DNA of 64,000 nt from a bacterium (lineage in GTDB: Bacteria; JAAXHH01), in NCBI GenBank assembly GCA_965225915.1, contig OZ245326.1, forward strand, positions 3,393,439-3,457,438, read 5' to 3'. This document shows, piece after piece, positions 4,183 to 54,937 of the stretch. Made by a program: the position numbers and the translations under genes. Under the pieces are notes generated by a model, which saw only the letters and a program-made list of their open reading frames with translations, searched no databases and was not told the DNA's origin. Position 1 is the first letter of the stretch; each line of letters opens with the position of its first letter.

Positions 4183-5343
4183 TCAGAACCCAACATCGCA
4201 TGCGTGTTCAAGCCCAACCGCTTGCACGCGATCATGAATACGAAATCGCGATTCGCCGGGGAATACGACGATGAGGCGGTCGAGTTTCAGGTCGTTCAAC
4301 GCCGTGTGCATAGAACGTGTCATTGAAGGCGCACTGGATCGTTTGAATTCGAACCCTGTTCTTCGACCGCCTTCCATGATCAGGAGGTCGAGTTCAGATC
4401 CACGATGTGTAGCCCAGAAATAACAGTCTTCCCACGCAGTGCCTGTAATACGGACCACCTCCTGCATGGCGAAACTCTCCCACGACGCTCCGGATTTCGG
4501 ATGTCCCATGAGATCTGCCTCGTCTTTCACACCCAGCAGTGCGTGCAACAGCCCGGGGTCCGATAGATAAACCTTGGGTGCTTTGACCTGCCGTTTCTTC
4601 AGATTCTCGTACCAGGGCTGCATTCTGCGCGCTACCAGTGCGCCGACAAGGGTGTCGAAATATGTATTTATCGTTGGTGCGGTGACACCAAGTGCACGGC
4701 CGAGTTCGGCTCCGTTCCAGTGGTTTCCGTGGTAGTGGGCCAACATAGTCCAAAATCGACGCATGGAAGCGGCAGGAACAGATACCCCGAGTTGAGGTAG
4801 ATCCCTTTCTAAGAACGTTCGAATGAACGCCGACCGCCAGGTAAGGCTGTCCTCATCGTTCCTGGCGAGGAACGAAGGTGGGAATCCGCCGCGCAGCCAA
4901 AGTCGGTCCGATTCGGCGGTATCTGTTTCGTTCATCCGTAGAGGCGGAAGTTCATAATATGCGATCCTTCCGGCGAGCGATTCCGATGATTGTCGCAGAA
5001 GGACAGGTCCCGCACTGCCCAGGACCAAAAAACGGGCCGGGGTACCGGGACGGTCCGAGAGCACGCGTAGTAGTCTGAAAATTCCTTCATTCCGCTGAAC
5101 CTCATCAATAACAACCAACCCGCGGAGCGGTTCCAATGCGAGCTTGGGATCGGATAGTCGTGTCTCGTCGGTTGGGTCTTCAAGATCGAAAAAGGTAACA
5201 GAAGGTTCGACATCCTCGATCAATTGGCGTGCAAGCGTAGTTTTGCCAACCTGCCGTGCACCTATGAGACAGACCACGGGAAACTGGTTTAACAGTTTGC
5301 CAATTGCGTTGAGATGTTGGGTACGCGGGATCATACTAGACAA
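4183..5343 (-). CDS. AAA-family ATP-binding protein (AAA_14 + DUF4143)
   Basis: Walker A LIGARQVGKTTLARQL. The C-terminal region is typical of DUF4143 ATPases. Confidence 0.8.
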   Translation of the reverse strand: MSSMIPRTQHLNAIGKLLNQFPVVCLIGARQVGKTTLARQLIEDVEPSVTFFDLEDPTDETRLSDPKLALEPLRGLVVIDEVQRNEGIFRLLRVLSDRPGTPARFLVLGSAGPVLLRQSSESLAGRIAYYELPPLRMNETDTAESDRLWLRGGFPPSFLARNDEDSLTWRSAFIRTFLERDLPQLGVSVPAASMRRFWTMLAHYHGNHWNGAELGRALGVTAPTINTYFDTLVGALVARRMQPWYENLKKRQVKAPKVYLSDPGLLHALLGVKDEADLMGHPKSGASWESFAMQEVVRITGTAWEDCYFWATHRGSELDLLIMEGGRRTGFEFKRSSAPSMTRSMHTALNDLKLDRLIVVFPGESRFRIHDRVQAVGLEHACDVGF

Positions 5344-5378
5344 TATAGGTGAAAATCGAAAGCGTCGCTATTGATTTT

Positions 5379-6212
5379 CTACATTGTCCTCGCCCACGCA
5401 GCGAAATGCGGCGGGATGATCACGGGCCGTTTGGCCGCGACGATTTCTGCCCGGACTCGCTGCGGAATGGTATCCACATCCACTTCCTCCGCGGTTGCAA
5501 TCTCATATTGCTCCAGGAGCGGTACAACGCTTCGGAATGAATTAGCGACATAGGAATAACCCGGCCAGTCGGCGGATCCGCCCAGCAGTAAACCGGCGTC
5601 GAGGGTGGGCTCGGGAAGACCGGCCTCCATAAAGACTCTGTGCAGATCCAGTCCCATGGTTGCGTTTGCCCCGGACCGCTCGAATACTTCTACGATCCAG
5701 TCGCTCTATTGGCCCATGAGCGGCGTATCAGGATTATGATACGAGCGGGTAATGGTAAAGTCGATCTCCTGAAAGCAAACGATACCCCCGTAATGCAGGC
5801 GCTTCAGCAGCTGTTTCAAGACCGATATCGGATCGGGCAGGTACATGAGCACCAGGCGGCCCACCAGTGCGTCGAAACGTCCCCCCAGGTCCAGGGTCTG
5901 TGCGTCTCCCTCGATGAATTTCACGTTTTCATGACCCGCTTCTCGAACCCGCTCTCGGGCTGTATCTAGGATATCCGGATTCGTGTCCACCCCCACAACT
6001 TCCCCATCCGGTCCGACCAATTCAGCTGCGACCAATGACACGTCTCCCGCTCCGCTTCCGATATCCAGGACCCTCATTCCGGCATCGATGCCGGCCGATT
6101 TCAGAAATCGTCGCGTCAGTGGCTGGATCAGTCGCGACTGCTCGATCAACCGTTGCGTCTCTTCGTCGCTTCTCCCCATCGTGTATTGTCGATCGCTATT
6201 TTGATCCGCCAT
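5379..6212 (-). pseudogene. class I SAM-dependent methyltransferase interrupted by a single in-frame TAG (5705..5703)
   Basis: The N-terminal ORF (5706..6212) has MTase motif I VLDIGSGAGDV and ends ...PLMGQ*. After 16 more in-frame codons the same frame continues as ORF 5379..5657 (MGLDLHRVFMEAGL...), which reads as the normal C-terminus of this family. The interruption is one in-frame stop; there is no frameshift. Confidence 0.55.
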
Positions 6213-21354: not shown

Positions 21355-23109
21355 CTAGTGCTCCCGCTTGACGACAATCATCGTAGTATCGTCGTCCTGG
21401 CGTCCGTTACCCACGAAGGCGCGCCACACATCGATCAAATGATCCCGTATTTCCTCGACAGGACAAGAATGACAGTCCTTGATGGCTTGCTCAAGCCGGT
21501 CTATGCCGAATATCTCGTCCCTGTCGTTGGACTTCTCGATAAGGCCATCCGTATACAGGACCACGACATCGCCTTCGCCCAGGTACACCCGGCCGTCGTC
21601 GAAACTCGCGTCCTCGAATGAACCCACGATCAGCCCTCCGGTGTAGAGGTTTACGGTCTCACCGGACTTTCGGCACAGCAGCGGAGGTGGATGGCCGGCA
21701 TTGCAATACAGAAAGGTATTTTCCTGCATGTTCGCGATTCCGTAGAATAGGGTCGCGAATCGATCGGCCGACGTGACTTCGTACAACACTTCATTGACGT
21801 GGCCGATCACGTAACTCGGCAGGTATACGTAGTAATTGGCGTATTCGTGAAAAGACGTGTAAAGCGACGCCATGGTCAACGCCGCGGGTATGCCCTTGCC
21901 GACCACGTCTCCCACGGCTACGCCCAACTGCTTGTCGGAAAAGGGGATGAAATCGTAGAAGTCTCCCCCGACCTCCCTGCTCGGTTCGCTGAACACGGCC
22001 AGGGACAGACCGGGCACGTCGGGCAAGGCCCGTGGCAACAGAGCCCGCTGTATCTCTCCGGCGACTTCCAACTCCCGGTCCAGCAATCGGCTACGACGGG
22101 CGTCGTCGAAGAGCCGGGCATTCTGTATGGCGATACTCGCTTGGGAGGCAAAGGCTTCGAGCAGGGACTGACTCTCCTCGTTGTAGGCATTGACCCGGTC
22201 GTTTTCTATGTTGAAGACCCCGATGACCTGGGCGCCGGACAGCAGGGGCACGGCCATTTCAGATTTCGTCCCGTGACGGTGCGGCACGTATCGGTCGTCC
22301 CTGGATACATCGGGCACGATGATCGCCTTTCCGGTTTCGGCCGCGGAACCGCTTATGCCTTCGCCCATTTTGAGGTTGATCGTATCCATATCGGTCGAAT
22401 AGCCCCTGATGGTGCGTTCGACCACCGCGTCATGGTCTTCATCCAAAAGGAAGATGGCTGCCGCGTCATAGGGAACCACGGTTTGCAGGGCGTCAATGAT
22501 CAGGTTCAACACCTCGTTCAGGTCCAGCGAACTGCTGATCTTCTTGCCAACCTCGTACAATGCGGTCCGATGCAGCATTTCCTTCCGGGCCAGCTTGAAA
22601 TGAAGTAGACGGGTGACCGCGTACCCCGCATGGCGCGCCAGGGATATGGTCACTTCCAGCCTTTCGGCGTCGAATTCGGCTTGGTCCGAAGCCATGATCG
22701 CGAGCATGACGCTATGAAACCGGTCATCGATCTGGTGGTGAAACAGCACGGCGTGGCCGGTATGGGATCCCTGGTCGGCCATGGTGCTCACGGGCCAGTC
22801 CATCTGGCGTATGTCGTCAATCAACCGTGTACTCGGCTGGGGCCGCAGCCAGGTCAGCAATTCTCCTACATCCCGGGACGCAACAGATTGGGTAAAACCG
22901 CAGTTTGACGTTTCGAAGACGATCCGGTTCGAGACGTAGTCCACCATGAAAAACCGGCACACTTCGGCGCCCGACAACTCCATGGACATTTCTTCAATGA
23001 CGGCGGACAGGTCGGCTTCTCCCGTAGCGGCCGTCATGCGGGTCAAACCCTCGACGACCCTGTGCCACAGGATATCCGAGCGTGCTTCGACTAAAGATGA
23101 TTCTAGCAT
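21355..23109 (-). CDS. GAF-domain PP2C (SpoIIE/RsbU-type) serine/threonine phosphatase
   Basis: 584 aa with a central GAF region. C-terminal PP2C motifs GGDFYDF, VGDVVGKGIPAA, LYTDGLIE. Confidence 0.8.
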   Translation of the reverse strand: MLESSLVEARSDILWHRVVEGLTRMTAATGEADLSAVIEEMSMELSGAEVCRFFMVDYVSNRIVFETSNCGFTQSVASRDVGELLTWLRPQPSTRLIDDIRQMDWPVSTMADQGSHTGHAVLFHHQIDDRFHSVMLAIMASDQAEFDAERLEVTISLARHAGYAVTRLLHFKLARKEMLHRTALYEVGKKISSSLDLNEVLNLIIDALQTVVPYDAAAIFLLDEDHDAVVERTIRGYSTDMDTINLKMGEGISGSAAETGKAIIVPDVSRDDRYVPHRHGTKSEMAVPLLSGAQVIGVFNIENDRVNAYNEESQSLLEAFASQASIAIQNARLFDDARRSRLLDRELEVAGEIQRALLPRALPDVPGLSLAVFSEPSREVGGDFYDFIPFSDKQLGVAVGDVVGKGIPAALTMASLYTSFHEYANYYVYLPSYVIGHVNEVLYEVTSADRFATLFYGIANMQENTFLYCNAGHPPPLLCRKSGETVNLYTGGLIVGSFEDASFDDGRVYLGEGDVVVLYTDGLIEKSNDRDEIFGIDRLEQAIKDCHSCPVEEIRDHLIDVWRAFVGNGRQDDDTTMIVVKREH

Positions 23110-42276: not shown

Positions 42277-42730
42277 CGGTGCGGTTCCTCTTGTAGATCA
42301 CGCTCAATATCAGAATGGGTACTCGAAAGTGGTTGCATGCGCACTTCCACGTCGATCTGGATATCTCCCCCACCGTGCAGCACCCCCGTTGTGGGGGAAA
42401 CGTCCTGGTAGTCCCTACCCACGGCAACGCGTACATGCCGCTTGTCGACGAAGGTCGAATTGGTGGGATCGAATCCGACCCAACCGAGTCCGGGTAACAG
42501 GCATTCCAGCCAGGCGTGCGTGGTCATCCCCCTGTTTTCCGCATTTTTCGCCGTTTCATCGTGGAGATATCCCGATACGTACCGGGCCGGAATACCCTCA
42601 GGTTCGCGCGATGGCGATCATGACATGGGCGTAGTCCTGGCATACGCCGCGTCCTGTATCCAGAATGTGGTCTATGGTGGAAGAGATTGATGTGCTGCCC
42701 GGTACATACTCAAATCTAGTGAAGATGATT
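42273..42730 (-). pseudogene. transglutaminase-like cysteine protease remnant (N-terminus deleted, internal stop/frameshift near 42600)
   Basis: Manual translation gives [50 protein letters not shown] and then, after a frame change, EGIPARYVSGYLHDE...MTTHAWLECLLPGLGWVGFDPTN...GRDYQDV. That is the catalytic Cys/His/Asp core of the TG-like partner of CP-ATP-grasp operons. Confidence 0.6.
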
Positions 42731-43974
42731 TCAGACAGCCGCTTCAGCGAAACTACCGGATCGGAGGCGGGCTCGATCCCGTTTCACGATGAGATCCTGC
42801 AGGTTGTCCAGCGTGAATTCGAGATCTTCCGGCGGTCGGCAGATATAGGTTTTCACGTTTTGAAGCAACGGTTCTTCGCCCAGGTAATAGCGTATCATGT
42901 CCGGCACGAATGCATATACGCTCTTATCGTCCGCAACGCCTGTACCCGGCGCGTTGACCAGGGTCACATTTCCGGCCTTGTAAACGCTCATCAGACCGGG
43001 CAGACCCAGGAGGGAGTCGGATCGAAAGACGAGGGGATCCAGGAAATCGTCGTCAACGCGGCGATAGATGACGTCCACACGGCGCAGACCCGACGTAGTG
43101 CGCATGTACACGTAATCCTCGTCAACCAGCAGGTCCCTACCTTCGATAAGGGTCGCTCGATCTCGTGGGCCAGATAAATGTGTTCATAAAACGCGGCATT
43201 GAATACACCTGGAGTCAGGAGTACCACGCATGGGTCCGGATGATCGCGAGGCGCGAGTTCGTGCAACATTTCCCGAAGCAGACCGCCGTAATGCTCGACC
43301 TCCTGGACCCGGCAACTGCGATACAACCTTCGTAGATTGATCTTGATAGCTTTCCGGTTAGCGACCATGTAGGACACTCCGGAGGGCACGCGCAGGTTGT
43401 CCTCGAGTACGTGGAACCCTTCATTCGTGCGCACCAGGTCGGTTCCGCAGACCGCGACGTGCGTACCATGAGGTACGGGCACTCCCCGCATTTCCACGCG
43501 GTACTGGGGACATCCCCTAACCATTTCGATGGGAATGACTCCGTCTTCAACGATACGCGCGGGTCCGTAGACATCGGCAAGGAACCGGTTCAATGCCTTC
43601 AAGCGCTGGGAAAGTCCCGCTTCGAGCTGCCGCCATTCACTCGCGGAAATGATCCGGGGCAGACAGTCGACCAGCATGATACGCTCGTTGGCCACCTCGT
43701 CGCCGTAAACCGTAAACGTGATGCCTTCACTGGAAAAGGAATGATTAACCCGTTCCTGCATGCGAACGAGTTCTTCAACGGGAAGGCGGAGCAGGGCTTC
43801 GTAGAGATAACGGCAATGATCGCGAGGCGTGCCGTCGGGCAGGAACATCTCGTCGTAGAAAGCGTTCTCCAGTTCGTACGTTTCGAAATCCATAACAAGG
43901 CTCCGTTCCGGGATCCAGCGCGATCCTTGTCCTGGAACCGTAAGACGGGAAGCAGGCGGAAGGGGTTCCGACAT
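42731..43974 (-). pseudogene. circularly permuted ATP-grasp type 2 protein, frameshifted (~43155..43165) and C-terminally truncated
   Basis: ORF 42991..43974 and ORF 42731..43111 are consecutive parts in different frames. The junction reads ...YLAHEIE|[21 protein letters not shown].... The protein stops ~100 aa early at ...[20 protein letters not shown] and runs straight into the TG-like remnant. Confidence 0.7.
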
Positions 43975-44261: not shown

Positions 44262-46208
44262 ATGGTCATCGAGTTTGTGAATCTACTCACCGCATACTTC
44301 GATTTCATCTGGTTGTCCTTCCTGTTGCTGGCCCCCATGTTGATTCTGGGTCTGCTGCTTTCCGGCCTGATTCATGTTTTCATATCACGCGAAGCCATAT
44401 TGAAATGGCTCCAGGACGACAGTCTCAGGTCGGTAAGCGTGAGCGCCGGGGTCGGCGTTCCTGTGCCGCTGTGCAGTTGCTCCGTTGTTCCGATTGTAGC
44501 GGAAATGCGGCGGAAAGGCGCATCGCGTTCCTCCTGCATGTCGTTCCTGATCACGGCCCCGGAAACCGGGGCGGATTCGATTCTCGTTACCAACGCGTTC
44601 TTCGGGATCGTCGTAGCCTTGATTCGACCCGTCATCAGTTTTATTACCGCGGTCGTGGCGGGTATCTTTTGCATCGGCCTGATCAGAGATGATAACGGCG
44701 AAGCCAGGACGGGCGACCATGACCACCGCGATCACCGCGATCATGACCACCATGATCACGTGCACGACCAATGTCATGGACACGACCATGCGGCTCATGA
44801 AACCCTCCTGTTCGAAAGGGACGATTGCTACGTCAGCCCTTCCGCCATGAAGATACTGATGGCAAGGTGGCTTAAAGGGATATCGACCGTCGCTTCCATA
44901 CGGAGGTTCGGATCGTGGGTTAAACCGGACTTCTATCGCGAACTGAATGAGGCGCAGCAGCAAAAAGTAGCAAAAACCTCCAAAGAAGATATCGTCGAAG
45001 AAGAATATCCCGGTCTCGACTTCAAGAAGATCGTCCAGCATATCATGCGATACGGCTTCGTGGAAATCGCTGACGATATCCTCTTCGCCCTGATCGTCGG
45101 CATTGCGCTGGGCGGCGTGCTCATTCTTGCCCTTCCAGCCGACATGATGTCTAACGAATACGCGCGATGGCTATCCTATCCCATCATGATCCTCGTTGGC
45201 GTGCCCCTTTACATCTGTGCCTCGGCCAGCACACCAATAGCCGCCGCGCTGGTGGCCAAGGGATTCAGCCCGGGTGCCGCCCTGATTTTCCTGATGACCG
45301 GGCCAGCCACCAACACGAGCACGATCGCGATTATCATGAGCCAGTTCGGTGCGCGATTCGCGGCCGTGTACGTTACTTCGATCATCGTGGTAACCGCCAC
45401 CCTGGGTATCGCCATCGACATCATGCTCCTGGCCACGGGATTGGCGGTTACCGTCAATCTGGGTCCGTCCGAATCCCCAACCCTTCAGTTTCTGCAATGG
45501 GGCGGCGCCTTTGCTTTGCTCGGGCTCATTATCTGGAGGTTTCGGGCCGGCGCCATGCGCAGCGGGTTCGAAGACCTAATGCTCAATATCCGTCCCCTAA
45601 CCAGGCCCTGGCTGCGAGTCTGGAAGCGTCTGACGCGGAACCGGTCCATTCGCAGCATGATATCGCCTTCCACCCCTTGGGGAATGATGCTGTACGGTTT
45701 GTTCCTGGTGCTCTTTCTGGGAAGCGGTTTCACGGTTGTGCCTCCAGGGCATGTCGGGTATGGCCGACTCTTCGGCGAAGTCTACTGGAAAGACCTGCAA
45801 CCGGGACTGCATTATCTCGCTCCGCGTCCCCTGGCCCTCGTCGACAAGTGGCCGGTTGCCGAAGTCAAATCCATCATGTCCGAATCGCCCTATGAATACG
45901 TTTCAGGCGACCTGAGCAAGCTTTCGCTCACCCTGGACGTACAGTACCGGGTAAAAGATCCCTACACGTACCATTACAACACGACCGATCCCGAAGAGAT
46001 CATCGAGGGCGCCGTCCGGGAGCACGTGCGCACGTTCATAAACGCCCACGATCTCGACTGGTTGCTCACCGCCTACCGTTCGGACCTGGAGAAAGAAATC
46101 ACCGAACTTTTCCGCCAGGACGTCCTCCCGGATGGATATGAACCGGTACTTGGCACCGTGGACCTGGTGAAGGTCAGCCTGCTTTGTATCAGTCCAGCCG
46201 AGGAATAG
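44262..46208 (+). CDS. DUF318/ArsP_1 (SO_0444-like Cu/Zn efflux) permease with His/Asp-rich loop, fused to a partial SPFH (band-7) domain
   Basis: PLCSCSVVP CxC motif. The loop DHDHRDHRDHDHHDHVHDQCHGHDH is metal-binding in character. The C-terminal ~160 aa (VVPPGHVGYGRLFGEVYWKDLQPGLHYLAP...VQYRVKDP) is the N-terminal half of an HflK/C-type SPFH domain. Confidence 0.7.
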   Translation: MVIEFVNLLTAYFDFIWLSFLLLAPMLILGLLLSGLIHVFISREAILKWLQDDSLRSVSVSAGVGVPVPLCSCSVVPIVAEMRRKGASRSSCMSFLITAPETGADSILVTNAFFGIVVALIRPVISFITAVVAGIFCIGLIRDDNGEARTGDHDHRDHRDHDHHDHVHDQCHGHDHAAHETLLFERDDCYVSPSAMKILMARWLKGISTVASIRRFGSWVKPDFYRELNEAQQQKVAKTSKEDIVEEEYPGLDFKKIVQHIMRYGFVEIADDILFALIVGIALGGVLILALPADMMSNEYARWLSYPIMILVGVPLYICASASTPIAAALVAKGFSPGAALIFLMTGPATNTSTIAIIMSQFGARFAAVYVTSIIVVTATLGIAIDIMLLATGLAVTVNLGPSESPTLQFLQWGGAFALLGLIIWRFRAGAMRSGFEDLMLNIRPLTRPWLRVWKRLTRNRSIRSMISPSTPWGMMLYGLFLVLFLGSGFTVVPPGHVGYGRLFGEVYWKDLQPGLHYLAPRPLALVDKWPVAEVKSIMSESPYEYVSGDLSKLSLTLDVQYRVKDPYTYHYNTTDPEEIIEGAVREHVRTFINAHDLDWLLTAYRSDLEKEITELFRQDVLPDGYEPVLGTVDLVKVSLLCISPAEE

Positions 46209-46364
46209 ATCAATGCGTTCAGGGAGATATCGAGCGCGGTAGGTTTCATGATGGGCGGGCTGATCACCAACTTCTTTCTGATACTGTTCTTCCAGGATCC
46301 AAATATGTTTCGTGCTCTCCATATACTTACCGTTACAAACAGCATAATTACGGGCTGATACATC

Positions 46365-47225
46365 GTGGAATCCAATACGATTCTTCATTTGCTGGGTTAC
46401 TCCGCGGCCATATTTGCCGTGTCCATGCTGGGCGGAAAACTCTCGGCCATCGTGACCTTGACGCACACGCGCACGCAACTGGTCATGAGTCTCGTGGCGG
46501 GGTTTCTCCTGGGCGTCGCCATGTACCACCTCCTGCTGCACAGCATAGAAGACATCCCCGGTCCTTACGCCGCTGAAACCGCCATTGGGTGTGCCGTACT
46601 CGGGATCATCGTGATTGTCGTCATGTTGCGCATATTCCGTTTTCACCAACACGATATCAGTCACGAAGCGATGGAAATGAACGATGACCATCACGGCACG
46701 GTAGATGTAAATCCACGAAGCGTATTCGGCATCGCGCTGGGCCTGGGCCTGCACACTGTTACAGAGGGGATCGCCCTGGGGGCCAGTGTGCGAATTGGTG
46801 TTCTGCATGACGGGGAAGCCGTTCTGGCTGGCCTCGGCGTGTTTCTGGCGATCATGGCTCACAAACCCCTTGATGCATACTCCATCATCGGTTTGATTAG
46901 AGCAACCGGTTACAGTAACCGCTCTTGCACCCTGACCAATATCGGTTTCGCCCTGTTGTGTCCGGTGGTCGCGGTATTGACCTTCCAGGGCGTGGGACTG
47001 CTCAACCAGTTGGAAGAGTTGCATATCGTAGGGTACATCATGGCCTTCGCCGCCGGCGTTTTTCTTTGTATATCCCTCGGTGACCTGTTGCCCGAAATCC
47101 AGTTCCACAGTCACGACCGTGGCATTCTTGCCGTAGCTTTCCTCCTGGGGATCGGTCTCGCTTACGCGCTGTTCTTCTTCGAATCCGACGCCACGCATGG
47201 GTTGAAAAACGGTGTTTTGCATTAG
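46365..47225 (+). CDS. ZIP family divalent metal transporter
   Basis: 286 aa, 8 TM. His-rich loop HQHDISHEAMEMNDDHHG and the ZIP motif HxxxEG (LHTVTEGIALG). Confidence 0.85.
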   Translation: MESNTILHLLGYSAAIFAVSMLGGKLSAIVTLTHTRTQLVMSLVAGFLLGVAMYHLLLHSIEDIPGPYAAETAIGCAVLGIIVIVVMLRIFRFHQHDISHEAMEMNDDHHGTVDVNPRSVFGIALGLGLHTVTEGIALGASVRIGVLHDGEAVLAGLGVFLAIMAHKPLDAYSIIGLIRATGYSNRSCTLTNIGFALLCPVVAVLTFQGVGLLNQLEELHIVGYIMAFAAGVFLCISLGDLLPEIQFHSHDRGILAVAFLLGIGLAYALFFFESDATHGLKNGVLH

Positions 47226-49511: not shown

Positions 49512-49535
49512 AAGACGTCACGTCTAAGACGTCTC
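49512..49535. terminator. candidate bidirectional hairpin between convergent P-type ATPase and histidine kinase genes
   Basis: AGACGTC(acgtctaa)GACGTCT is a 7-bp stem overlapping the HK stop codon. On the HK transcript it is followed by a T-rich stretch (ctttctttatg). It is a weak candidate. Confidence 0.3.
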
Positions 49536-51683
49536 CACCGCGGATGCGGCAGCCGCAACGAGCGGGATTTCGATGGTCATTTCGGTGTATTCTCCGGGTT
49601 CGGAATCCACCTTGATCACACCACCGTGCTCGCGTATGACATCGTTTGAAAGCGCCAGGCCCAGACCGGTGCCCTGATCGGTAGGCTTGGTGGTGAAGAA
49701 GGGATTGAAGATCTTTTCTCTGACATGGGGCGGGATTCCCTTGCCATTGTCCTTGATGCGGATCACGATCTGATCGGCCTCGCGGCGGGTGGCCAACCAT
49801 AGGGCGGGGACGTATTCGGACGCGGTTTCCGGATCTTGCTGCTTTTCGTGGGTAGCGTGGCACGCGTTATTGACCATGTTCACAAATACCCGGGCCATAT
49901 CCTGGGACACGATCTCTACCTCTCCCATTTGCGGATCCAGGTCTTCGTTTATTTCGAGTTGAAATTCTGAATTGGTTGCCCGGGCGCTGTGAAACGCAAG
50001 GCGGGCATGCTCTTCAAGCAAGGGGTTTAGATCGGTGGACTGTTTCTCTGCGGATCCCCGCCCCATCTGCAGCATGTCGCGTACGATTCGATTAGCCCGT
50101 TCGCCGTGCTCCCGGATGCGGCGCAGGTTGTCCGACAGATCGCCGCCGAGTTCGAGAATCAAATCATTCTGCTCTTCGGTCAGGGATCCACCTTCCGTCG
50201 GTAGTTCTTCCTGAAGTTCTTCGAGCAGTTCCTCCGACGATTCGGCGAAGTTCTTCACGAAGTTCAGCGGGTTCTGTATTTCGTGCGCGACGCCTGCCGT
50301 CAGTTCCCCAAGGGCCGCAAGTTTTTCCCGCATGACGATCTGATCCTGCGCGTGCTGAAGCTCAACGAGCGTTGTTTCCAGTTCGTCGTTCTTGCCTCGG
50401 AGTTCCTCCGCGAGTTTTTCCACGAGGTTCAGTCGCTGCGCTTCGATAGAATGCAGCCTGAACACTTCAAGGGCGGCGGCCATGTCCGCCACCTCGTCGC
50501 GACCGTCCAGTTCCACCTTCTGCTTCAGATCACCACCGGCCATACGACGCATGTGTTCGGACAGAAACCCCAGACGGCGAAGTAACACCTTGCCGACGAA
50601 TAACCACGCGATGAGGACCGCTCCAATCAGGCTGATGGCGTTGAGGACAAGCAGGAGCTGTCTACCCACCTGGATCGTCTGCGTGGAAGCAACCGTAGCT
50701 GCCTGGGTGCTTGCCTGCGCCGAATTCACGAGATTCTCCACCTCGGCGACCAGTTCGACGGCGAGATCGCGGTTGCTATCGATCAATGCGCGCTGTTGGG
50801 CCATAAGCTCCAGGTCTTCCGCGCGGATTTGAAAGATCTTTCCCTGGCCGCTTCCCAGTTCAAACAACTGGTCAAACACCGGTTCGAGACTTTGCCGCAG
50901 CGGAGCCGTTCCCAGGCCTGCCAAACTCCTTTCAACTCCGCCGCTGGCCGATTCGAATCGCTCCAGCAGGGGCTCCAGTCGGTCGGCGTTGGAGAGGTTG
51001 AAGACGTTGGACAGGATTCGGGTGCTGACGGTCGCCTCGGTCTGCAATTCGGCGAGATGCCGGTATCGCTGCAGTTCTATTTCAGAAAGGAATTCCGTAC
51101 GAGGCGCCGCCGGTTCGTCTATGTTCCGGTAACCGGTGGTTGTGTAAAACAACTGGTTGTCCAGGGCCGGAACAAGAATACCGGCCATTTCGAGCTGCAG
51201 TTGCTCCAGTTCACGACGAAAGCGCTGGGTTTGATCCTCGAGGATGAAGCGTCTCGCCACGGACTCCTCGATCATACCGATGTTGGTAATCAGCGTGTTA
51301 CCGCTTTCACTGATACGTTGAAATCGTTCGTTTTCCATGCCATGACTGGTTAGCGCTTCCAGTTGAACCGCGAAGCTTTCGCGTTCTTCGGCGATACTAG
51401 CCGTCACGGCAGCAAATGCCTCGGGAGTTTCCGCGGCTGTCAGTCGCGGAGCGGCGGCCGCCAGCGTTCCGCTCTGTTGCGCAACACCGAACGCGTCGGC
51501 GATTTCGGGGACCGCCACTTCATTCACTTCCCGTTGGGCCTCACCGACCTCGTTGAAGGCGAACCAGGCCACCATACTTGCTATCATGGTGAGCGCTACG
51601 GCCGTGCCGATACCCAAGTACAACTGTCCCGAAATACGGGAAGGGCCTTTGTCATATAACCACAGCAGCCAACTCTTGATCAC
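49524..51683 (-). CDS. sensor histidine kinase (periplasmic sensor-HAMP-HisKA-HATPase)
   Basis: 719 aa with two TM helices flanking a ~300-aa periplasmic domain. HAMP, H-box GVAHEIQNPLN, and the N/G1/G2 boxes. Confidence 0.9.
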   Translation of the reverse strand: MIKSWLLWLYDKGPSRISGQLYLGIGTAVALTMIASMVAWFAFNEVGEAQREVNEVAVPEIADAFGVAQQSGTLAAAAPRLTAAETPEAFAAVTASIAEERESFAVQLEALTSHGMENERFQRISESGNTLITNIGMIEESVARRFILEDQTQRFRRELEQLQLEMAGILVPALDNQLFYTTTGYRNIDEPAAPRTEFLSEIELQRYRHLAELQTEATVSTRILSNVFNLSNADRLEPLLERFESASGGVERSLAGLGTAPLRQSLEPVFDQLFELGSGQGKIFQIRAEDLELMAQQRALIDSNRDLAVELVAEVENLVNSAQASTQAATVASTQTIQVGRQLLLVLNAISLIGAVLIAWLFVGKVLLRRLGFLSEHMRRMAGGDLKQKVELDGRDEVADMAAALEVFRLHSIEAQRLNLVEKLAEELRGKNDELETTLVELQHAQDQIVMREKLAALGELTAGVAHEIQNPLNFVKNFAESSEELLEELQEELPTEGGSLTEEQNDLILELGGDLSDNLRRIREHGERANRIVRDMLQMGRGSAEKQSTDLNPLLEEHARLAFHSARATNSEFQLEINEDLDPQMGEVEIVSQDMARVFVNMVNNACHATHEKQQDPETASEYVPALWLATRREADQIVIRIKDNGKGIPPHVREKIFNPFFTTKPTDQGTGLGLALSNDVIREHGGVIKVDSEPGEYTEMTIEIPLVAAAASAVETS

Positions 51684-52900
51684 GGCATCTCGTCCCGAAG
51701 GGATTCAATAGGATGGTAACGTCCATCTTTACCGATGACGGTGAGGAAGACCGCGTCGGAGCCCTGGTTGTCATCTACACCGAATTCAAGACGAAGTCCG
51801 CCCATGTCTATGGTTTCGGCCCGGTTCAGGCTTTCCATGAGACAGTTCCGCTTTACATCGGGTCCGCAACCTTCCAGCGCGCTGATCGCAAGACGGCCGG
51901 CCAGGTATCCTTCGAATGAAACGAATCCCGGCGCAGCCCCTGGCTCATACGCGGCCAGGGCCCTTCGGTACGCTACGGCTATGGATATATTACTGGCCCC
52001 GGGGAAGGGGACCACCTGCGATACGAGGACGCCCCGGCCGTTGGAGCCCAGTTCCCGGGCCAACGCGTTGCTGCCCACGAAGGAGATCGTCGCGAAGACC
52101 GGGTTGAAACCCACGTGCCGGGCCCACGTTATGAGCGTGGCAACCGGCTGGTACGCACCGATAACTACGACCGCGTCCGGTTTTCCCTGTTGAAGATCGA
52201 GCAGGCCGGCCTTGATCGCCGTGGTGTTCCTGGGATACACGCCGATCGCCACCGGATCCAGCTTCCTGCGTTCCAATGCCAGCCTTACCCCTCTATAACC
52301 AACCCTGCCAAAAGAATCATTTTGATACATCACGCCGATGCGCGTGATGCCGAGATCCCGCGACAAACGGTCTACGATTTCCTCGGTTTCCTGGTAGTAG
52401 GAAGCGCGCAGGTTGATTACGCCCGATTCAGTATTGTCTCTTAAGAAAATCGCGCCGGTAAATGGCGCGATATAAGGTACACCCGCCTGCGAGGTGATTG
52501 GAACTGCCGAGCGGGAAGTCGGCGTGCCCACAGCGCCGATGAGTGCAAATACCTGTTCTTCCTCGATCAACTTCCGGGTATTCGCGATGGCGGCTTCCGG
52601 TTCGTATGCGTCGTCAAGGGTAATCAACTCAAGACGGCGTCCGTGCACACCCCCCTTGCGGTTCACCTCCCGAAAAGCCGCCTCGATCCCGAGATTCATG
52701 TTCTGGCCGAGTTCCCGGGCCGGACCACTGAACGCTGCGGACTGACCGAATAGAATGCGTTCGTCGGAAACGCCTGGTTCCTGTTCTTCAACCTGGGCGG
52801 CGTTCGCACCGCTGTTTTCGTGGGATAAAGCGGGAGAGAACGCCGTCGCACAGAGGGCGAATAATAAAACGACCGCCCAGTGTTCTCGCGTTCGTCTCAT
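51680..52900 (-). CDS. periplasmic binding protein (type 1, Leu/Ile/Val-binding-like), likely HK-associated sensor partner
   Basis: 406 aa with a signal peptide and LivJ/LivK-like fold sequence. Its stop overlaps the HK start by 4 nt. Confidence 0.8.
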   Translation of the reverse strand: MRRTREHWAVVLLFALCATAFSPALSHENSGANAAQVEEQEPGVSDERILFGQSAAFSGPARELGQNMNLGIEAAFREVNRKGGVHGRRLELITLDDAYEPEAAIANTRKLIEEEQVFALIGAVGTPTSRSAVPITSQAGVPYIAPFTGAIFLRDNTESGVINLRASYYQETEEIVDRLSRDLGITRIGVMYQNDSFGRVGYRGVRLALERRKLDPVAIGVYPRNTTAIKAGLLDLQQGKPDAVVVIGAYQPVATLITWARHVGFNPVFATISFVGSNALARELGSNGRGVLVSQVVPFPGASNISIAVAYRRALAAYEPGAAPGFVSFEGYLAGRLAISALEGCGPDVKRNCLMESLNRAETIDMGGLRLEFGVDDNQGSDAVFLTVIGKDGRYHPIESLRDEMP

Positions 52901-53322
52901 CCGTTATCCTTCCGCTTGACGATCGTCAGGATGTTCTTGTTGTCTTCTCGACGGTAATTCAACTCATCCATCATGGTCCGAACGAGGTAGATGCCCAGCC
53001 CGCCGACGGGTCGATCGTCCAATCCGGATTCGAGATCGGGTTCCGGAGAGTCTGCAAGGGGATTAAAGGCCTGTCCTTCGTCCCGCAGCTCGATAGTCAG
53101 GACTTCCGTATCTGAATCCAGGATGATCTCGAATTCATGTTTAGGATCGTTGTCGTGCCCATGCGTGACGATGTTGACGCCCAATTCCTCGAGGACCAGC
53201 TTGACCTGGTACACCATGCCCGGCGGCCAGTCTTCCGCCTCGCCGAGTTCATCAACCGCATCGTAAATGCGATCCAGCTGGTCGAGCTTCGTGGGCAGGC
53301 AAAGGGACAGTCTTCTGCTCAT
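52897..53322 (-). CDS. anti-sigma regulatory factor / RsbW-like serine kinase (HATPase_c_2)
   Basis: 141 aa with a GHKL N-box (ELGVNIVTHG) and G-box (GGLGIYLV). Confidence 0.7.
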   Translation of the reverse strand: MSRRLSLCLPTKLDQLDRIYDAVDELGEAEDWPPGMVYQVKLVLEELGVNIVTHGHDNDPKHEFEIILDSDTEVLTIELRDEGQAFNPLADSPEPDLESGLDDRPVGGLGIYLVRTMMDELNYRREDNKNILTIVKRKDNG

Positions 53323-53330
53323 GGTTATCC

Positions 53331-54506
53331 CTAGCGCTGAATGACGGCAACACAGGTAATGTCGTCGGACTGCGGCGTCTCGCCAGCGAAGTCGTGGACT
53401 GCCTTGAAAACGGCTTGATTCGCTTCCTCCGCGGTTGCTGGGCGAGTTTCTGCAAATACCGACTGCAGGCGGTCCATGCCGAATTCTTCCCCATCGGCGT
53501 TCATGGCTTCGGTAACACCGTCAGTATAGAGTACAAGACAGTCGCCTGGCGAAAGCGAGACGCTCGACTGGCCGTATTCGACTCCGGGAAAAACCCCGAG
53601 AGCAAGACCGTCGGTTCTGGGAAGAAGTGTTGTACTGCCATCGGGATGAATGACCAGCGGTGGATTGTGTCCCCCGTTTGCGTAGTCCACCTGACCGGTC
53701 ATTGGGGTATATACGGCATAGAAGGTCGTGACGAACATGGCCGCTTCGTTTTCTTCGGTAAGGAGATCGTTGACTTCCTTCAATACAGCCCCTGGATCCA
53801 TGGCTCCGATGGCCGCTCCCTTCAACAGGGTCCGGCTCGACATCATAAAAAGCGCGGCCGGAACGCCCTTGTCGGACACATCGGCAATCGCCAGAGCGAT
53901 CCGTTCGCCGGGTAGCGGGAAAACATCAAAAAAGTCCCCTCCAACCTCCCTGGCCGATTCCATGTTCGCGAAGATCTGACAGTGTTCGGAGTCGGGAAAC
54001 TCGGTCGGCAGGATGGACTGCTGCATCTTGCTGGCCACGTTCAGTTCGTTCTGCAGTCTGACCAGCTGGTCCCGTGATTCCAATGCTGAACGCCACTCTT
54101 CCATATTCTTCAAGGTGCGTTCGATGGTCACCCGAAGGTCCTGAAAATCGATGGGCTTGGTAATGAAGTCGAAGGCGCCCCTGTTCATGGCAGTCCGGAT
54201 ATTCTTCATATCCCCGTAGGCAGAGACCACCACGGCGCGTATGTCGGGGGCGATGTTCGGAATCTGTGCCAGGAGAGTAAGGCCGTCCATCCGGGGCATG
54301 TTGATATCTGACAGGACCATGTCGATATCGGGAACCTCGCTCAAAAGCTCCAAGGCTTCCACGCCATTATGGGCAAAGTATAGCGTATATAGACCGTCAC
54401 GAACATCACGGCGCATTCTTTGTCGCATCAGATGTTCCAGGTCCGGTTCATCGTCCACCACGAGGATTTTATATGTAGTTTGCGTCATGTCACCCCTGCA
54501 AGCCAC
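53331..54506 (-). CDS. response regulator receiver fused to PP2C (RsbU/SpoIIE-type) phosphatase
   Basis: REC domain (ILVVDDEP, phospho-acceptor D in VLSDINMP) followed by PP2C motifs (GGDFFDVF, IADVSDKGVPAA, LYTDGVTE). Confidence 0.85.
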   Translation of the reverse strand: MACRGDMTQTTYKILVVDDEPDLEHLMRQRMRRDVRDGLYTLYFAHNGVEALELLSEVPDIDMVLSDINMPRMDGLTLLAQIPNIAPDIRAVVVSAYGDMKNIRTAMNRGAFDFITKPIDFQDLRVTIERTLKNMEEWRSALESRDQLVRLQNELNVASKMQQSILPTEFPDSEHCQIFANMESAREVGGDFFDVFPLPGERIALAIADVSDKGVPAALFMMSSRTLLKGAAIGAMDPGAVLKEVNDLLTEENEAAMFVTTFYAVYTPMTGQVDYANGGHNPPLVIHPDGSTTLLPRTDGLALGVFPGVEYGQSSVSLSPGDCLVLYTDGVTEAMNADGEEFGMDRLQSVFAETRPATAEEANQAVFKAVHDFAGETPQSDDITCVAVIQR

Positions 54507-54598
54507 TATGCCCGAATGACGGATATCTAACTGAACGGATATCTAACTGAGAGGATAATAAAAATGTATGCCACTGCGTGGACGACCGGATCGAGCGC

Positions 54599-54937
54599 TT
54601 ACCGGCCGATCTTCTCCACCGCATCCGCCTGGGAATCGTGAATGGAAATGATCTTGTCGAAGCCGCTGATTTCGAAGACTTCCCGGATCGGGTCCGACAG
54701 CGAGCACAACGCGAACGCGGCATTCCGCTTCTGAAGCAGACGTGCGATCAGGAGGATGACCCTGAGACCAGCGCTGCTGATATAGGACAACGCACCGAAG
54801 TCCAGGAGCACCTTGCTATCGTCCTCAGCGATGGCGCCGTTAAGTGCATCTTCGAATTCCCGTGCGTTGGCGCCGTCGATACGACCTTCAACCTTTGCAA
54901 TCAGAACTTCGTTTGCTCGGTCGACACTGATCTCCAT
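54599..54937 (-). CDS. STAS-domain anti-sigma-factor antagonist (RsbV/SpoIIAA-like)
   Basis: 112 aa. The conserved phosphorylatable Ser context is LDFGALSYISSAGLRVI. Confidence 0.8.
   Translation of the reverse strand: MEISVDRANEVLIAKVEGRIDGANAREFEDALNGAIAEDDSKVLLDFGALSYISSAGLRVILLIARLLQKRNAAFALCSLSDPIREVFEISGFDKIISIHDSQADAVEKIGR

Follow-up and report, generated by a model that had tools for sequence, protein, structure and literature searches.

The window analyzed here, the whole stretch of 64,000 nucleotides, carries five co-directional genes on its minus strand, for which ORF calls and Pfam agree on the domains and coordinates given in the initial annotation. These genes, the spacer between the first two and an operon remnant on the same strand are as follows:

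54599..54937, minus strand: STAS protein, anti-sigma-factor-antagonist type, 112 aa (Pfam STAS PF01740, E 9e-21)
54489..54598, minus strand: STAS/REC-PP2C spacer, 110 nt, read from the sequence
53331..54488, minus strand: REC-PP2C, a response regulator whose output domain is a PP2C/SpoIIE phosphatase, 385 aa (Pfam Response_reg, E 2e-25; SpoIIE, E 2e-56)
52897..53322, minus strand: RsbW/SpoIIAB-type serine kinase, anti-sigma-like, 141 aa (Pfam HATPase_c_2, E 2e-28)
51680..52900, minus strand: periplasmic binding protein (PBP) of the LivJ / Peripla_BP_6 type, 406 aa (Pfam Peripla_BP_6, E 2e-55)
49524..51683, minus strand: membrane sensor histidine kinase (HK), 719 aa (Pfam TorS_sensor_domain, HAMP, HisKA, HATPase_c)
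42324..43974, minus strand: ATP-grasp / transglutaminase operon remnant (tblastn)

The junctions had been described as 4-nt overlaps or short gaps. This holds for the last three: an 8-nt gap lies between the PP2C stop and the RsbW start, an ATGA overlap (4 nt) joins the RsbW and PBP genes, and a GTGA overlap (4 nt) joins the PBP and HK genes. It does not hold for the STAS to REC-PP2C gap, which at 110 nt is hardly short. The spacer contains a window-specific 16-bp tandem duplication (54519-54550); in an alignment with four close relatives, L082 has one copy of the 16-mer and the others have none. A search of the spacer for a terminator-like site found none. In the same alignment, the ribosome-binding site GGGGTGAC before ATG 54488 is kept in all four relatives. 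Because a GGGGGTGA-N-ATG ribosome site upstream of the REC-PP2C start is conserved across these relatives and an independent gene call also gives 385 aa, the start is most likely ATG 54488 rather than GTG 54506.

Between 35.7 kb and 64 kb the window has no sigma factor, further response regulator or ABC permease. The same holds for 10 kb on either side in a 92%-identical relative, where REC-PP2C is the only response regulator nearby. The earlier observation that no sigma factor lies nearby is thus borne out, and the stand-alone GAF-PP2C reported at 21355-23109 is real. No candidate target of RsbW/STAS is encoded in the window. The step from a missing sigma gene to a possibly non-sigma output is unwarranted. 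A missing neighbor says little, because the HptB-HsbR-HsbA system of Pseudomonas aeruginosa and the CrsR-CrsA system of Shewanella oneidensis control sigma factors encoded outside their clusters (PMC6482189).

The cassette was compared with 80 related loci in independent genomes, with a neighborhood of 10 kb. This gene order is found again in 66-80 of the 80 genomes, far beyond chance. The PBP gene lies directly upstream of the HK gene in every locus, and their 4-nt start/stop overlap is kept in 64. REC-PP2C accompanies the pair in 75 loci; it is missing at contig ends in L057 and L060, L081 lacks it and carries an IS110 transposase upstream, and L039 and L047 are simply without the gene. RsbW is present in 70 loci and STAS, whose gene position varies, in 66. 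At the REC-PP2C/RsbW junction, most distances are -5 to +5 nt. Both RsbW and STAS are absent from five full-length loci (L012, L027, L033, L061 and L086), and REC-PP2C is retained even where these two are lacking. Across at least ten phyla, identity of the cassette runs at 50-70%. Its sensor belongs to a rare family, with 50 clusters at E<=1e-30 out of 1.84 billion. Several loci derive from sponge metagenomes; the bacteria that carry the cassette are most likely host-associated, and several are documented symbionts of sponges. No published characterization of the cassette was found in the literature searched.

These data bear on whether the HK and REC-PP2C belong together. The HK could signal to a response regulator encoded elsewhere while REC-PP2C is fed by other kinases, so that two pathways merely lie side by side. 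Cross-talk and many-to-one wiring have been described in the HptB/HsbR network (PMC6482189), and the independent GAF-PP2C in the window indicates other inputs to Ser/Thr phospho-signaling in this genome. However, REC-PP2C is not orphaned from the HK in related genomes, a concern raised initially, since the two occur together in 75 of 80 loci from at least ten phyla. Kinase-core relatives with different sensors (for example dCache with an NMT1-type binding protein) again precede REC-PP2C and RsbW, and in L107 STAS too follows a related kinase core, REC-PP2C and RsbW. With no other regulator nearby and the genes translationally coupled, we give two separate pathways hardly any credence.

The input side of the proposed single pathway comprises the HK and the PBP. 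The roughly 300-aa periplasmic domain initially assigned to the HK is found at aa 44-342 (nt 50658-51554), between hydrophobic segments at aa 21-43 (TM1) and aa 343-365 (TM2). The cytoplasmic part has a HAMP domain (aa 363-409), a DHp domain with H467 (codon 50283-50285) and a catalytic domain (aa 594-708), and is without a receiver or HPt domain; H467 is invariant in 15 relatives, as are the N, G1, F and G2 boxes. The sensor matches 274 of 275 positions of the Pfam TorS_sensor_domain profile (E 2e-11). HK aa 17-439 match positions 2-429 of the NCBIfam TorS model, scoring 181 bits where the equivalog cutoff is 676.5. In a fold search with the AlphaFold model (pLDDT 89), the six best PDB matches were all TorS sensor structures (TM up to 0.81), and the TorS-TorT complexes 3o1h, 3o1i and 3o1j were among the top matches. 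Against the TorS chains of 3o1h and 3o1i the TM score is 0.72-0.81, and sensor identity to TorS structures is 16-20%. By these profile and model comparisons the periplasmic domain is a TorS-type helical sensor, a kind known to act via a bound PBP, which supports the earlier suggestion that the solute-binding protein is the probable sensor. The input would therefore follow the TorT/TorS mode, a LivJ-type binding protein taking the place of TorT.

The PBP has an N-terminal Sec signal peptide. Most diderm phyla have a signal peptide at the N-terminus; 35 of 74 orthologues, mostly from Chloroflexota and Actinomycetota, have a lipobox with a P/T/A-rich linker. Judged by these N-termini, the protein appears to be exported in every lineage, with anchoring fitted to the envelope type. 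Its closest solved homologues are 4kv7 (E 4e-72) and 3lop, structural-genomics entries whose names give no ligand. TorT belongs to another binding-protein family, and the docking mode therefore cannot simply be transferred to the cassette PBP.

A role for the PBP as ligand-binding co-sensor of the kinase is proposed. It could instead be an ordinary substrate-binding protein of an ABC importer that shares the operon, with the HK using its periplasmic domain to sense something else. The Peripla_BP_6 family is known best for transport proteins of the LivJ type, homologues are labelled 'ABC transporter substrate-binding protein' in the sources, and some binding proteins serve both transport and signaling. 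Several observations nevertheless make a plain importer subunit highly improbable. LivHMGF-type genes are absent within 10 kb in the 92%-identical relative, and Liv-type permease or ATPase genes are not recurrent near the PBP in the 80 loci, where the sole recurrent ABC ATPase is SufC. Adjacency to the HK is invariant and the start/stop overlap conserved. The PBP scores 53.6 bits against the LivJ subfamily model (cutoff 477), more distant relatives of the 4kv7 clade also pair with membrane kinases rather than transporters, and the HK sensor belongs to the only helical type for which signaling via a bound binding protein is documented.

On the output side, the co-sensing PBP and its kinase would feed a partner switch with intact catalytic motifs. 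REC-PP2C carries the receiver residues D12, D13, D61 (phospho-acceptor), S89 and K111 and the PP2C metal-binding motifs GGDFFD (D185, D188), ADVSDKG (D203), YTDG (D323) and SDDIT (D375, D376), all invariant or near-invariant in 76 orthologues; among solved structures, P. aeruginosa RssB (3eq2) is closest to it. The RsbW-like kinase has an N-box (N50, H54), G1 DEGQAF (D81, G83) and G2 GGLG (107-110), conserved in 71 orthologues, and matches the NCBIfam RsbW and SpoIIAB equivalogs weakly, far under their cutoffs. The STAS protein scores 78.5 bits against NCBIfam ant_ant_sig (cutoff 53.45), and its S54, S55, A56 and G57 are invariant in 70 orthologues. The phospho-serine is predicted to be S55, in the motif Y-I-S-S-A-G-L-R, presumably the counterpart of SpoIIAA Ser58.

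The surroundings of the cassette point to nitrogen. The ammonium transporter gene Amt occurs in 24 of 80 loci and an ATP-grasp/Alpha-E/transglutaminase operon in 19; one or both are found in 28 loci, in several arrangements and at least 7 phyla or classes. Amt and P-II genes placed before STAS, described below, add to this link. In many related loci the operon comes directly after the kinase, in the order HK > ATP-grasp > Amt > Alpha-E > transglutaminase. In the window, a decayed remnant with a circularly permuted ATP-grasp and a transglutaminase is left, with two frameshifts. It has lost the Amt and Alpha-E genes, and plus-strand metal-transport genes part it from the HK. One ORF (42991-43974) covers no more than positions 1-172 of a 374-position profile, and tblastn recovers the following pieces:

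43893-43159, minus strand: ATP-grasp aa 1-245
43156-42779, minus strand: ATP-grasp aa 247-372
42783-42595, minus strand: transglutaminase aa 144-206
42596-42324, minus strand: transglutaminase aa 206-296

The ATP-grasp operon is reported to be induced in nitrogen-limited P. putida (PMC5666114). The cassette is most likely a nitrogen-related environmental sensor, and its physiological role is most likely control of nitrogen acquisition, through ammonium uptake and the operon associated with nitrogen limitation. The link is statistical and not universal, because 52 of 80 loci have neither Amt nor the operon within 10 kb and the window holds only a dead remnant. Part of the adjacency could reflect hitch-hiking if horizontal transfer carried the block as a whole.

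The gene next to STAS raises the question of a non-transcriptional output. STAS, alone or with P-II, might bind and gate a membrane transporter, above all Amt, with the sensor pathway setting STAS phosphorylation and RsbW only resetting STAS. Amt lies directly before STAS (gap <200 nt) in eight loci, including L005 and L050, where the pair is kept though inverted behind the kinase and detached from the other cassette genes. Four loci have P-II genes ahead of STAS: L023 and L025 with P-II between Amt and STAS, L034 with an Amt-fragment/P-II ORF and L072 with a P-II-STAS fusion. Other transporters also flank STAS, namely a Na:alanine symporter (L008) and a Na/H exchanger with CBS domains (L006, L013, L032), and 22 of the 24 Amt-bearing loci are without a P-II gene. 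A STAS protein with a non-sigma partner has precedent in HsbA with HsbD (PMC6482189). Against such gating, 56 of 80 loci have no nearby Amt, as does the window, and the adjacency equally fits co-transfer of Amt or its transcriptional control by the cassette. That RsbW persists as a protein in its own right, with conserved residues on its surface, suggests that it has its own partner. We know of no precedent for a free STAS protein regulating Amt, and overall this output seems unlikely.

The directly observed domain identities, conserved catalytic residues, TorS-type fold, gene order, translational coupling and neighborhood statistics are best accommodated by a single signal-transduction pathway. 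Every comparative test run supported this reading, which had been put forward as a two-component input joined to a partner switch: the five genes probably form one pathway in which PBP and HK feed the REC-PP2C/RsbW/STAS switch, with a likely role in nitrogen. We infer the protein contacts, the direction of the phosphorylation effects, the ligand and the target as follows. The secreted LivJ-type PBP would capture a small extracytoplasmic solute, which the context suggests is a nitrogen-containing compound. It would dock on the TorS-type periplasmic domain and shift the kinase/phosphatase balance, as TorT does on TorS. The HK would phosphorylate Asp61 of REC-PP2C and so switch its phosphatase activity. 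This phosphatase and the RsbW-like serine kinase would oppose each other on Ser55 of STAS, whose phosphorylation state would set which partner STAS holds, the RsbW-like protein or a different one. That choice may free or block a target encoded outside the cassette.

On the input side, the TorT-TorS TMAO sensor of E. coli and Vibrio parahaemolyticus likewise has a stacked helical periplasmic sensor domain, an adjacent binding-protein gene and the architecture TM - sensor - TM - HAMP. It differs in that the cassette binding protein is of the Peripla_BP_6 (LivJ-like) type and not TorT, the cassette kinase is non-hybrid, without a receiver or HPt domain, and the regulator is a phosphatase whereas TorR is DNA-binding. 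In the RsbK-RsbY-RsbV-RsbW-SigB system of Bacillus cereus, an HK activates a REC-PP2C that dephosphorylates the STAS antagonist of the RsbW kinase (PMC3999984). RsbK itself is hybrid, carrying a receiver domain (PMC4574943), and no binding protein is described for it, whereas the cassette kinase has one. SigB is encoded within the RsbK-RsbY cluster, while the cassette has no sigma gene and a periplasmic input. RbaV/RbaW/RbaY of Rhodobacter capsulatus also place STAS, RsbW-like and REC-PP2C proteins in one pathway; they too lack a linked sigma factor, and two-hybrid tests did not reveal one (PMC3999984). Unlike in the cassette, rbaY is unlinked from rbaVW, and the Rba phenotype concerns gene-transfer-agent production. 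No cognate kinase or binding protein is known for the Rba proteins, whereas the cassette encodes both.

The output resembles most a split HsbR/HsbA or CrsR/CrsA system. There too, two-component phosphoryl input reaches a receiver domain controlling a PP2C phosphatase. An RsbW-type kinase/anti-sigma module works against this phosphatase on STAS, and the STAS gene lies directly upstream of the regulator gene (PMC6482189). The domain content is identical (REC + PP2C + HATPase_c_2 + STAS), the likeness being drawn at the level of domains. HsbR and CrsR receive their input from an Hpt protein fed by hybrid kinases, whereas the cassette has a dedicated co-transcribed orthodox kinase with its own PBP. 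The cassette regulator is split into REC-PP2C and RsbW genes with an 8-nt gap, and by analogy these two may be viewed as doing in two genes what HsbR and CrsR do as three-domain regulators.

The initial annotation had described five co-directional genes that join a histidine kinase to a partner-switching module. Open reading frames and Pfam matches bear out all five on the minus strand at 49524-54937, with the domains proposed and two small corrections:

54599-54937, minus strand: STAS protein (PF01740, E 9e-21; above the NCBIfam ant_ant_sig cutoff)
53331-54506, minus strand: REC-PP2C, a Response_reg receiver joined to a SpoIIE/PP2C phosphatase (Pfam PF07228, E 2e-56)
52897-53322, minus strand: RsbW/SpoIIAB-type kinase, HATPase_c_2 (Pfam PF13581, E 2e-28)
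51680-52900, minus strand: periplasmic binding protein (PBP), LivJ-like Peripla_BP_6 (Pfam PF13458, E 2e-55)
49524-51683, minus strand: membrane histidine kinase (HK) with TorS_sensor_domain, HAMP, HisKA and HATPase_c (Pfam)

The overlaps and short gaps said to link all five genes were upheld in part. In the DNA, the RsbW-like gene overlaps the PBP gene through ATGA, the PBP gene overlaps the HK gene through GTGA, and 8 nt separate PP2C from RsbW; these two 4-nt overlaps and the short gap stand, whereas STAS is set apart from REC-PP2C by a spacer of 110 nt. For the REC-PP2C gene, ATG 54488 (385 aa) is the most likely start: the GGGGGTGA-N-ATG site there is conserved in four relatives, and independent gene calls also give 385 aa. 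Within the spacer, at 54519-54550, lies a perfect 16-bp tandem duplication (TCAGTTAGATATCCGT x2, minus strand). It was considered as an operator and rejected, since the duplication is specific to the window; the 16-mer is found once in L082, the closest relative (92% identical), and not at all in the other relatives. The repeat is therefore a recent local duplication and not a conserved site. A scan of the cassette for promoters and terminators gave counts no higher than shuffled expectation and nothing usable, and transcription units were therefore deduced from spacing.

The sequences contain the predicted elements of a partner switch of the RsbV/RsbW/RsbU type: a STAS antagonist, a GHKL serine kinase and a PP2C phosphatase. 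The STAS motif SSAG (S54, S55) is invariant in 70 orthologues, with S55 as the predicted phosphorylatable serine. In orthologues from 80 genomes, the receiver residues D12, D13, D61, S89 and K111 and the PP2C motifs GGDFFD, ADVSDKG, YTDG and SDDIT are invariant or nearly so. The metal-binding aspartates of the phosphatase (D185, D188, D203, D323, D375, D376) are conserved, as are the N-box N50, G1 D81/G83 and G2 GGLG of the RsbW-like kinase. This kinase scores 36 bits against the RsbW equivalog (cutoff 145) and 32 bits against the SpoIIAB equivalog (cutoff 135), and is therefore a member of the family and an orthologue of neither.

On the input side, relatives of the HK show little or no variation at His467 of the H-box or in the N, G1, F and G2 boxes. 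The HK had been credited with a periplasmic domain of about 300 aa, and 299 aa do lie between hydrophobic segments at aa 21-43 and 343-365. This domain covers positions 1-274 of 275 of PF21689 (TorS_sensor_domain), and HK aa 17-439 align with positions 2-429 of the NCBIfam TorS model (TIGR02956; 181 bits against a cutoff of 676.5). When an AlphaFold model of the sensor (mean pLDDT 89) was compared with the PDB by Foldseek, the six best matches were TorS sensor structures, including TorS-TorT complexes (TM-score up to 0.81), followed by the ligand-binding domains of PilJ and McpS. Profile and model together predict a TorS-type double helical-bundle sensor. TorS is the textbook example of a kinase that senses its ligand via a permanently bound periplasmic binding protein. 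The sensor family is scarce: of 1.84 billion cluster representatives, just 393 match at E<=1e-3, and 50 remain at E<=1e-30.

The kinase alignment was scanned against one genome per species, which yielded 80 loci with full-length kinases (51-85% identical); their genes were counted from tblastn and ORF clustering. The HK is present in all 80, REC-PP2C in 75, RsbW in 70 and STAS in 66; in five loci STAS lies just behind the HK on the opposite strand. Start/stop overlaps recur between PBP and HK (64/80) and between RsbW and PBP (56/73). The junction between REC-PP2C and RsbW is mostly -5 to +5 nt, and in the related loci too these are two separate genes.

These loci bear on the proposal that the five genes form a single pathway, in which PBP and HK feed the partner switch. 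One alternative is that the REC-PP2C is an orphan regulator unconnected to the kinase. It accompanies the PBP-HK pair in 75 of the 80 loci, which favours the single pathway. The five loci without it comprise two contig ends (L057 and L060), one with an IS110 transposase upstream of PBP-HK (L081), one that retains STAS, RsbW, PBP and HK (L039) and one that retains PBP and HK only (L047). At L081 the IS110-family transposase (4946-5989) occupies the expected place of REC-PP2C and RsbW is reduced to a fragment, so this cassette is disrupted. Five full-length loci (L012, L027, L033, L061, L086) carry REC-PP2C, PBP and HK without RsbW and STAS.

A second alternative assigns the PBP to a separate ABC importer. 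The protein has the type I binding-protein fold of the Leu/Ile/Val family (PF13458; PDB homologues), its closest structure being 4kv7 (E 4e-72). It scores 53.6 bits against the LivJ subfamily model (cutoff 477), and the cutoff of the UrtA family is likewise far from reached. Its gene stands immediately upstream of the HK gene in all 80 loci. Permease and ATPase genes of an ABC importer were found neither in the window nor in L082, and no Liv-type transporter genes recur in the 80 loci, near which the sole recurrent ABC ATPase is SufC. These results again favour the single pathway. Thus, the proposed wiring of a two-component input with a binding protein into a partner switch is supported, at the level of sequence, by conserved gene order, start/stop overlaps and the TorS-type sensor.

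The N-termini of the PBPs (L002-L081 of the related loci) carry a predicted export signal in every lineage. In most diderm phyla it is a short Sec signal peptide, and in 35 of 74 orthologues, mostly from Chloroflexota and Actinomycetota, a lipobox is followed by a Pro/Thr/Ala-rich tether of 30-40 residues. The export signal follows envelope type, and the PBP has therefore been fitted to the cell envelope of each host. The lipobox group takes in some PBPs from outside these two phyla, and the group as a whole has either the long tether or a membrane anchor. Solved homologues were considered as a guide to the ligand and set aside, the nearest (4kv7 and 3lop) having no informative ligand name. 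Distant relatives of the PBP, in Rhodopirellula and others, are encoded immediately before membrane kinases whose outputs differ, and no transporter genes accompany them. BLASTP and Pfam found no similarity between the window sensor and the sensors of kinases paired with 4kv7-like PBPs; by these methods, the sensors of the wider 'PBP_6 + kinase' class therefore do not form a single homologous family. No second PBP paralogue was found in the window, where ORF 45903-47222 has no Pfam match and is probably spurious. An orphan Peripla_BP_6 paralogue, 38-40% identical, is present in three relatives (L002 15952-17178, L004 15957-17198 and L082 15901-17064), where it adjoins Band_7 genes and has no transporter genes beside it.

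Where related kinase cores carry other sensors (loci L107, L109 and L110), REC-PP2C and RsbW still come next, the same output module with an exchanged input; STAS was detected in L107 and was not detectable in L109 or L110. At L109 (6065-10683), the REC-PP2C and RsbW genes come after an NMT1/THI5-type binding protein and a dCache-HAMP kinase. The three loci suggest a wider class of operons in which a binding protein and a kinase would act on a REC-PP2C partner switch. Elsewhere, two or three STAS paralogues are found upstream of the cassette (L055 5259-8260, L080 5247-8257, also L014 and L034), together with a stand-alone receiver domain about 70% identical to the receiver part of REC-PP2C. 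These expansions hint at multi-partner networks in some Chloroflexota.

In the window, the cassette is flanked on one side by two PhyH dioxygenases and the SUF operon, and on the other by a Cu P-type ATPase, a ZIP transporter and an ArsP/Band_7 ORF. In this 648-aa ORF (44262-46208, plus strand), an ArsP_1-type permease (aa 22-385) is joined to a Band_7/SPFH domain at the C-terminus (aa 492-635), and the ORF adjoins the other two metal genes; the block has a different arrangement in the 92%-identical relative. Flanks vary by lineage (malate synthase, DNA polymerase III alpha, cation efflux and other unrelated genes), and the cassette is therefore a self-contained module in many chromosomal contexts. 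Just two neighbours are found repeatedly in different phyla: an ammonium transporter (Amt; 24 loci) and a circularly permuted ATP-grasp operon (ATP-grasp/Alpha-E/transglutaminase; 19 loci). One or both are found in 28 of the 80 loci, from Latescibacterota, Gemmatimonadota, Chloroflexota, Acidobacteriota, Alpha- and Gammaproteobacteria and Binatia; the other 52 have neither. The operon often directly follows the HK, with the Amt gene embedded in it. The window holds a decayed counterpart:

42324-43974, minus strand (that of the cassette): ATP-grasp + transglutaminase remnant with two frameshifts and an internal deletion of Amt and Alpha-E

Gene order in the remnant is that of the intact operon after the HK in many relatives, and the plus-strand metal-transport genes separate it from the HK.

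The association with nitrogen-related genes extends to STAS itself. Amt lies directly upstream of STAS (gap <200 nt) in eight loci, including an inverted Amt-STAS pair behind the HK in L005 and L050. A P-II gene stands between the two in L023 (6145-6465) and L025 (6139-6459). In L034 (6022-6651, plus strand) a single ORF joins a C-terminal fragment of Amt to P-II and abuts STAS, and in L072 (677-1360, plus strand) P-II (aa 1-83) is fused to STAS (aa 118-221) via a Pro/Ala-rich linker; the T-loop region of this P-II looks shortened in the sequence. Other transporters flanking STAS are a Na:alanine symporter and a Na/H exchanger with CBS domains. In four loci of Acidobacteriota type (L011 12232-13713, L015, L030, L042), the gene next after the HK on the same strand encodes an AlgE-like outer-membrane porin (Alginate_exp). 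The ATP-grasp/Alpha-E/transglutaminase (Anbu-type) operon has been reported to be induced in nitrogen-limited P. putida (PMC5666114). Because Amt, P-II and the ATP-grasp operon recur beside the cassette, gene context favours a nitrogen-related role. Their recurrent link also provides a regulatory handle on the function of this enigmatic operon.

By MAG label, 46 of the 80 loci belong to Chloroflexota and the remainder to Actinomycetota, Acidobacteriota, Latescibacterota, Gemmatimonadota, Alpha-/Gammaproteobacteria, Spirochaetia, Rhodothermales, Binatia and others. Among at least ten phyla, the cassette proteins share 50-70% of their residues; measured against the window, the cross-phylum identities are 63-70% (REC-PP2C), 59-73% (PBP) and 51-65% (HK). 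Between phyla, the cassette-linked Amt and ATP-grasp proteins have median identities of 68% and 73%. Recent horizontal transfer, as judged by aberrant GC, was rejected: the GC of the cassette tracks that of the flanks in each host (50-68%). A neighbour-joining tree without support values is star-like and places Spirochaetia, Rariloculaceae, Acidimicrobiia and Rhodothermales inside Chloroflexota groups. These patterns are compatible with, and suggest, old inter-phylum transfers followed by amelioration.

For several loci an origin in sponge metagenomes is demonstrated. When 241 million metagenome records were scanned, full-length relatives were confined to about a dozen and a half contigs, of which ten belong to GenBank sets MKWU, LXNI and LXNJ. 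Many MAG names among the loci other than L060 (SB06xx, COS, RHO3, Langseth) are presumably sponge-derived. The three GenBank sets are sponge metagenomes of Aplysina aerophoba, Sarcotragus foetidus and Petrosia ficiformis, and the seawater set LXNH of the same study yielded zero full-length relatives (PMC5099237). L060 is bin90 (SAR202) from A. aerophoba (PMC5649159). Genes for GPP34 (Golgi phosphoprotein 3-like), reported in 2025 as associated with sponge symbiosis (PMC11706023), lie within a few kb of the cassette in several loci (L008 1015-1686, L017, L022, L026, L034, L040, L062, L087, L098). The cross-phylum distribution of the cassette is apparently sponge-associated. This distribution and the link of STAS to Amt and P-II go beyond the initial annotation.

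If the sponge association holds, the cassette is a candidate for a signalling route shared among unrelated, uncultured symbionts, all of which would read one chemical cue, and the ligand of the PBP, once found, would identify that cue. A more detailed scenario is speculative and rather unlikely as a whole: a horizontally spread, self-contained sensing module of sponge symbionts from many phyla, whose orphan PBP would detect a nitrogenous metabolite of the host or holobiont, and whose STAS protein, as a phospho-switchable partner or replacement of P-II, would directly gate Amt and the linked ATP-grasp/Alpha-E/transglutaminase system. Were it true, a partner switch would have been re-used for transporter and nitrogen control instead of for a sigma factor.

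No candidate target gene for RsbW/STAS is encoded within ~10 kb, and no sigma gene recurs across the 80 loci. The earlier statement that no sigma factor is encoded nearby is correct for 35.7-64 kb of the window, where a second response regulator and an ABC permease were not found either. The suggestion drawn from it, that the output may be non-sigma, does not follow, as such an absence is usual for the class. In HsbR/CrsR systems, receiver phosphorylation shifts the balance of enzyme activities on the STAS serine, and the targets are encoded elsewhere: RpoS, or FlgM/FliA or a diguanylate cyclase via the STAS protein (PMC6482189). R. capsulatus RbaV/W/Y is a switch without a linked or identified sigma factor (PMC3999984), and in B. 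cereus RsbK-RsbY a kinase controls a REC-PP2C. Since kindred systems act on unlinked targets, the lack of a sigma gene beside the cassette is normal. The stand-alone GAF-PP2C noted at 21355-23109 (minus strand) was confirmed (GAF aa 195-329, SpoIIE aa 392-582). The PP2C part shares 36% identity with that of REC-PP2C, and the adjacent genes encode a GFO/IDH oxidoreductase and an RluD-like pseudouridine synthase. The GAF-PP2C was rejected as a cassette component and treated as separate because neither STAS nor RsbW lies beside it.

Paper searches, sponge literature included, found no published description of the cassette. Its building blocks, binding-protein-assisted kinases and REC-PP2C-driven partner switches, are known; for their joining in one coupled operon no description was found. 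The cassette is a compact and complete sensor-to-switch pathway, each component of which can be expressed and assayed. It resembles TorS/TorT in the TorS-type periplasmic sensor of its HK. TorT belongs to a PBP family other than the LivJ-like one, whereas the cassette partner matches Peripla_BP_6, ANF_receptor and Peripla_BP_5. TorS is a hybrid kinase (receiver and HPt) that acts on TorR, whereas the cassette HK lacks both receiver and HPt domains and scores below the TorS equivalog cutoff. On the output side, hsbA-hsbR has the same domain content and order (STAS, REC-PP2C, RsbW-type kinase), and CrsA-CrsR the same domain content. HsbR, however, carries receiver, PP2C and kinase in one chain, which the cassette divides between two genes. 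Systems of the HsbR/CrsR type also receive their input from hybrid kinases via an Hpt protein, and no Hpt gene lies near the cassette. Lacking defining features of both TorS/TorT and HsbR/CrsR, the cassette is therefore a member of neither family. By analogy, it would work like TorT/TorS at its input and like a split HsbR/HsbA at its output.
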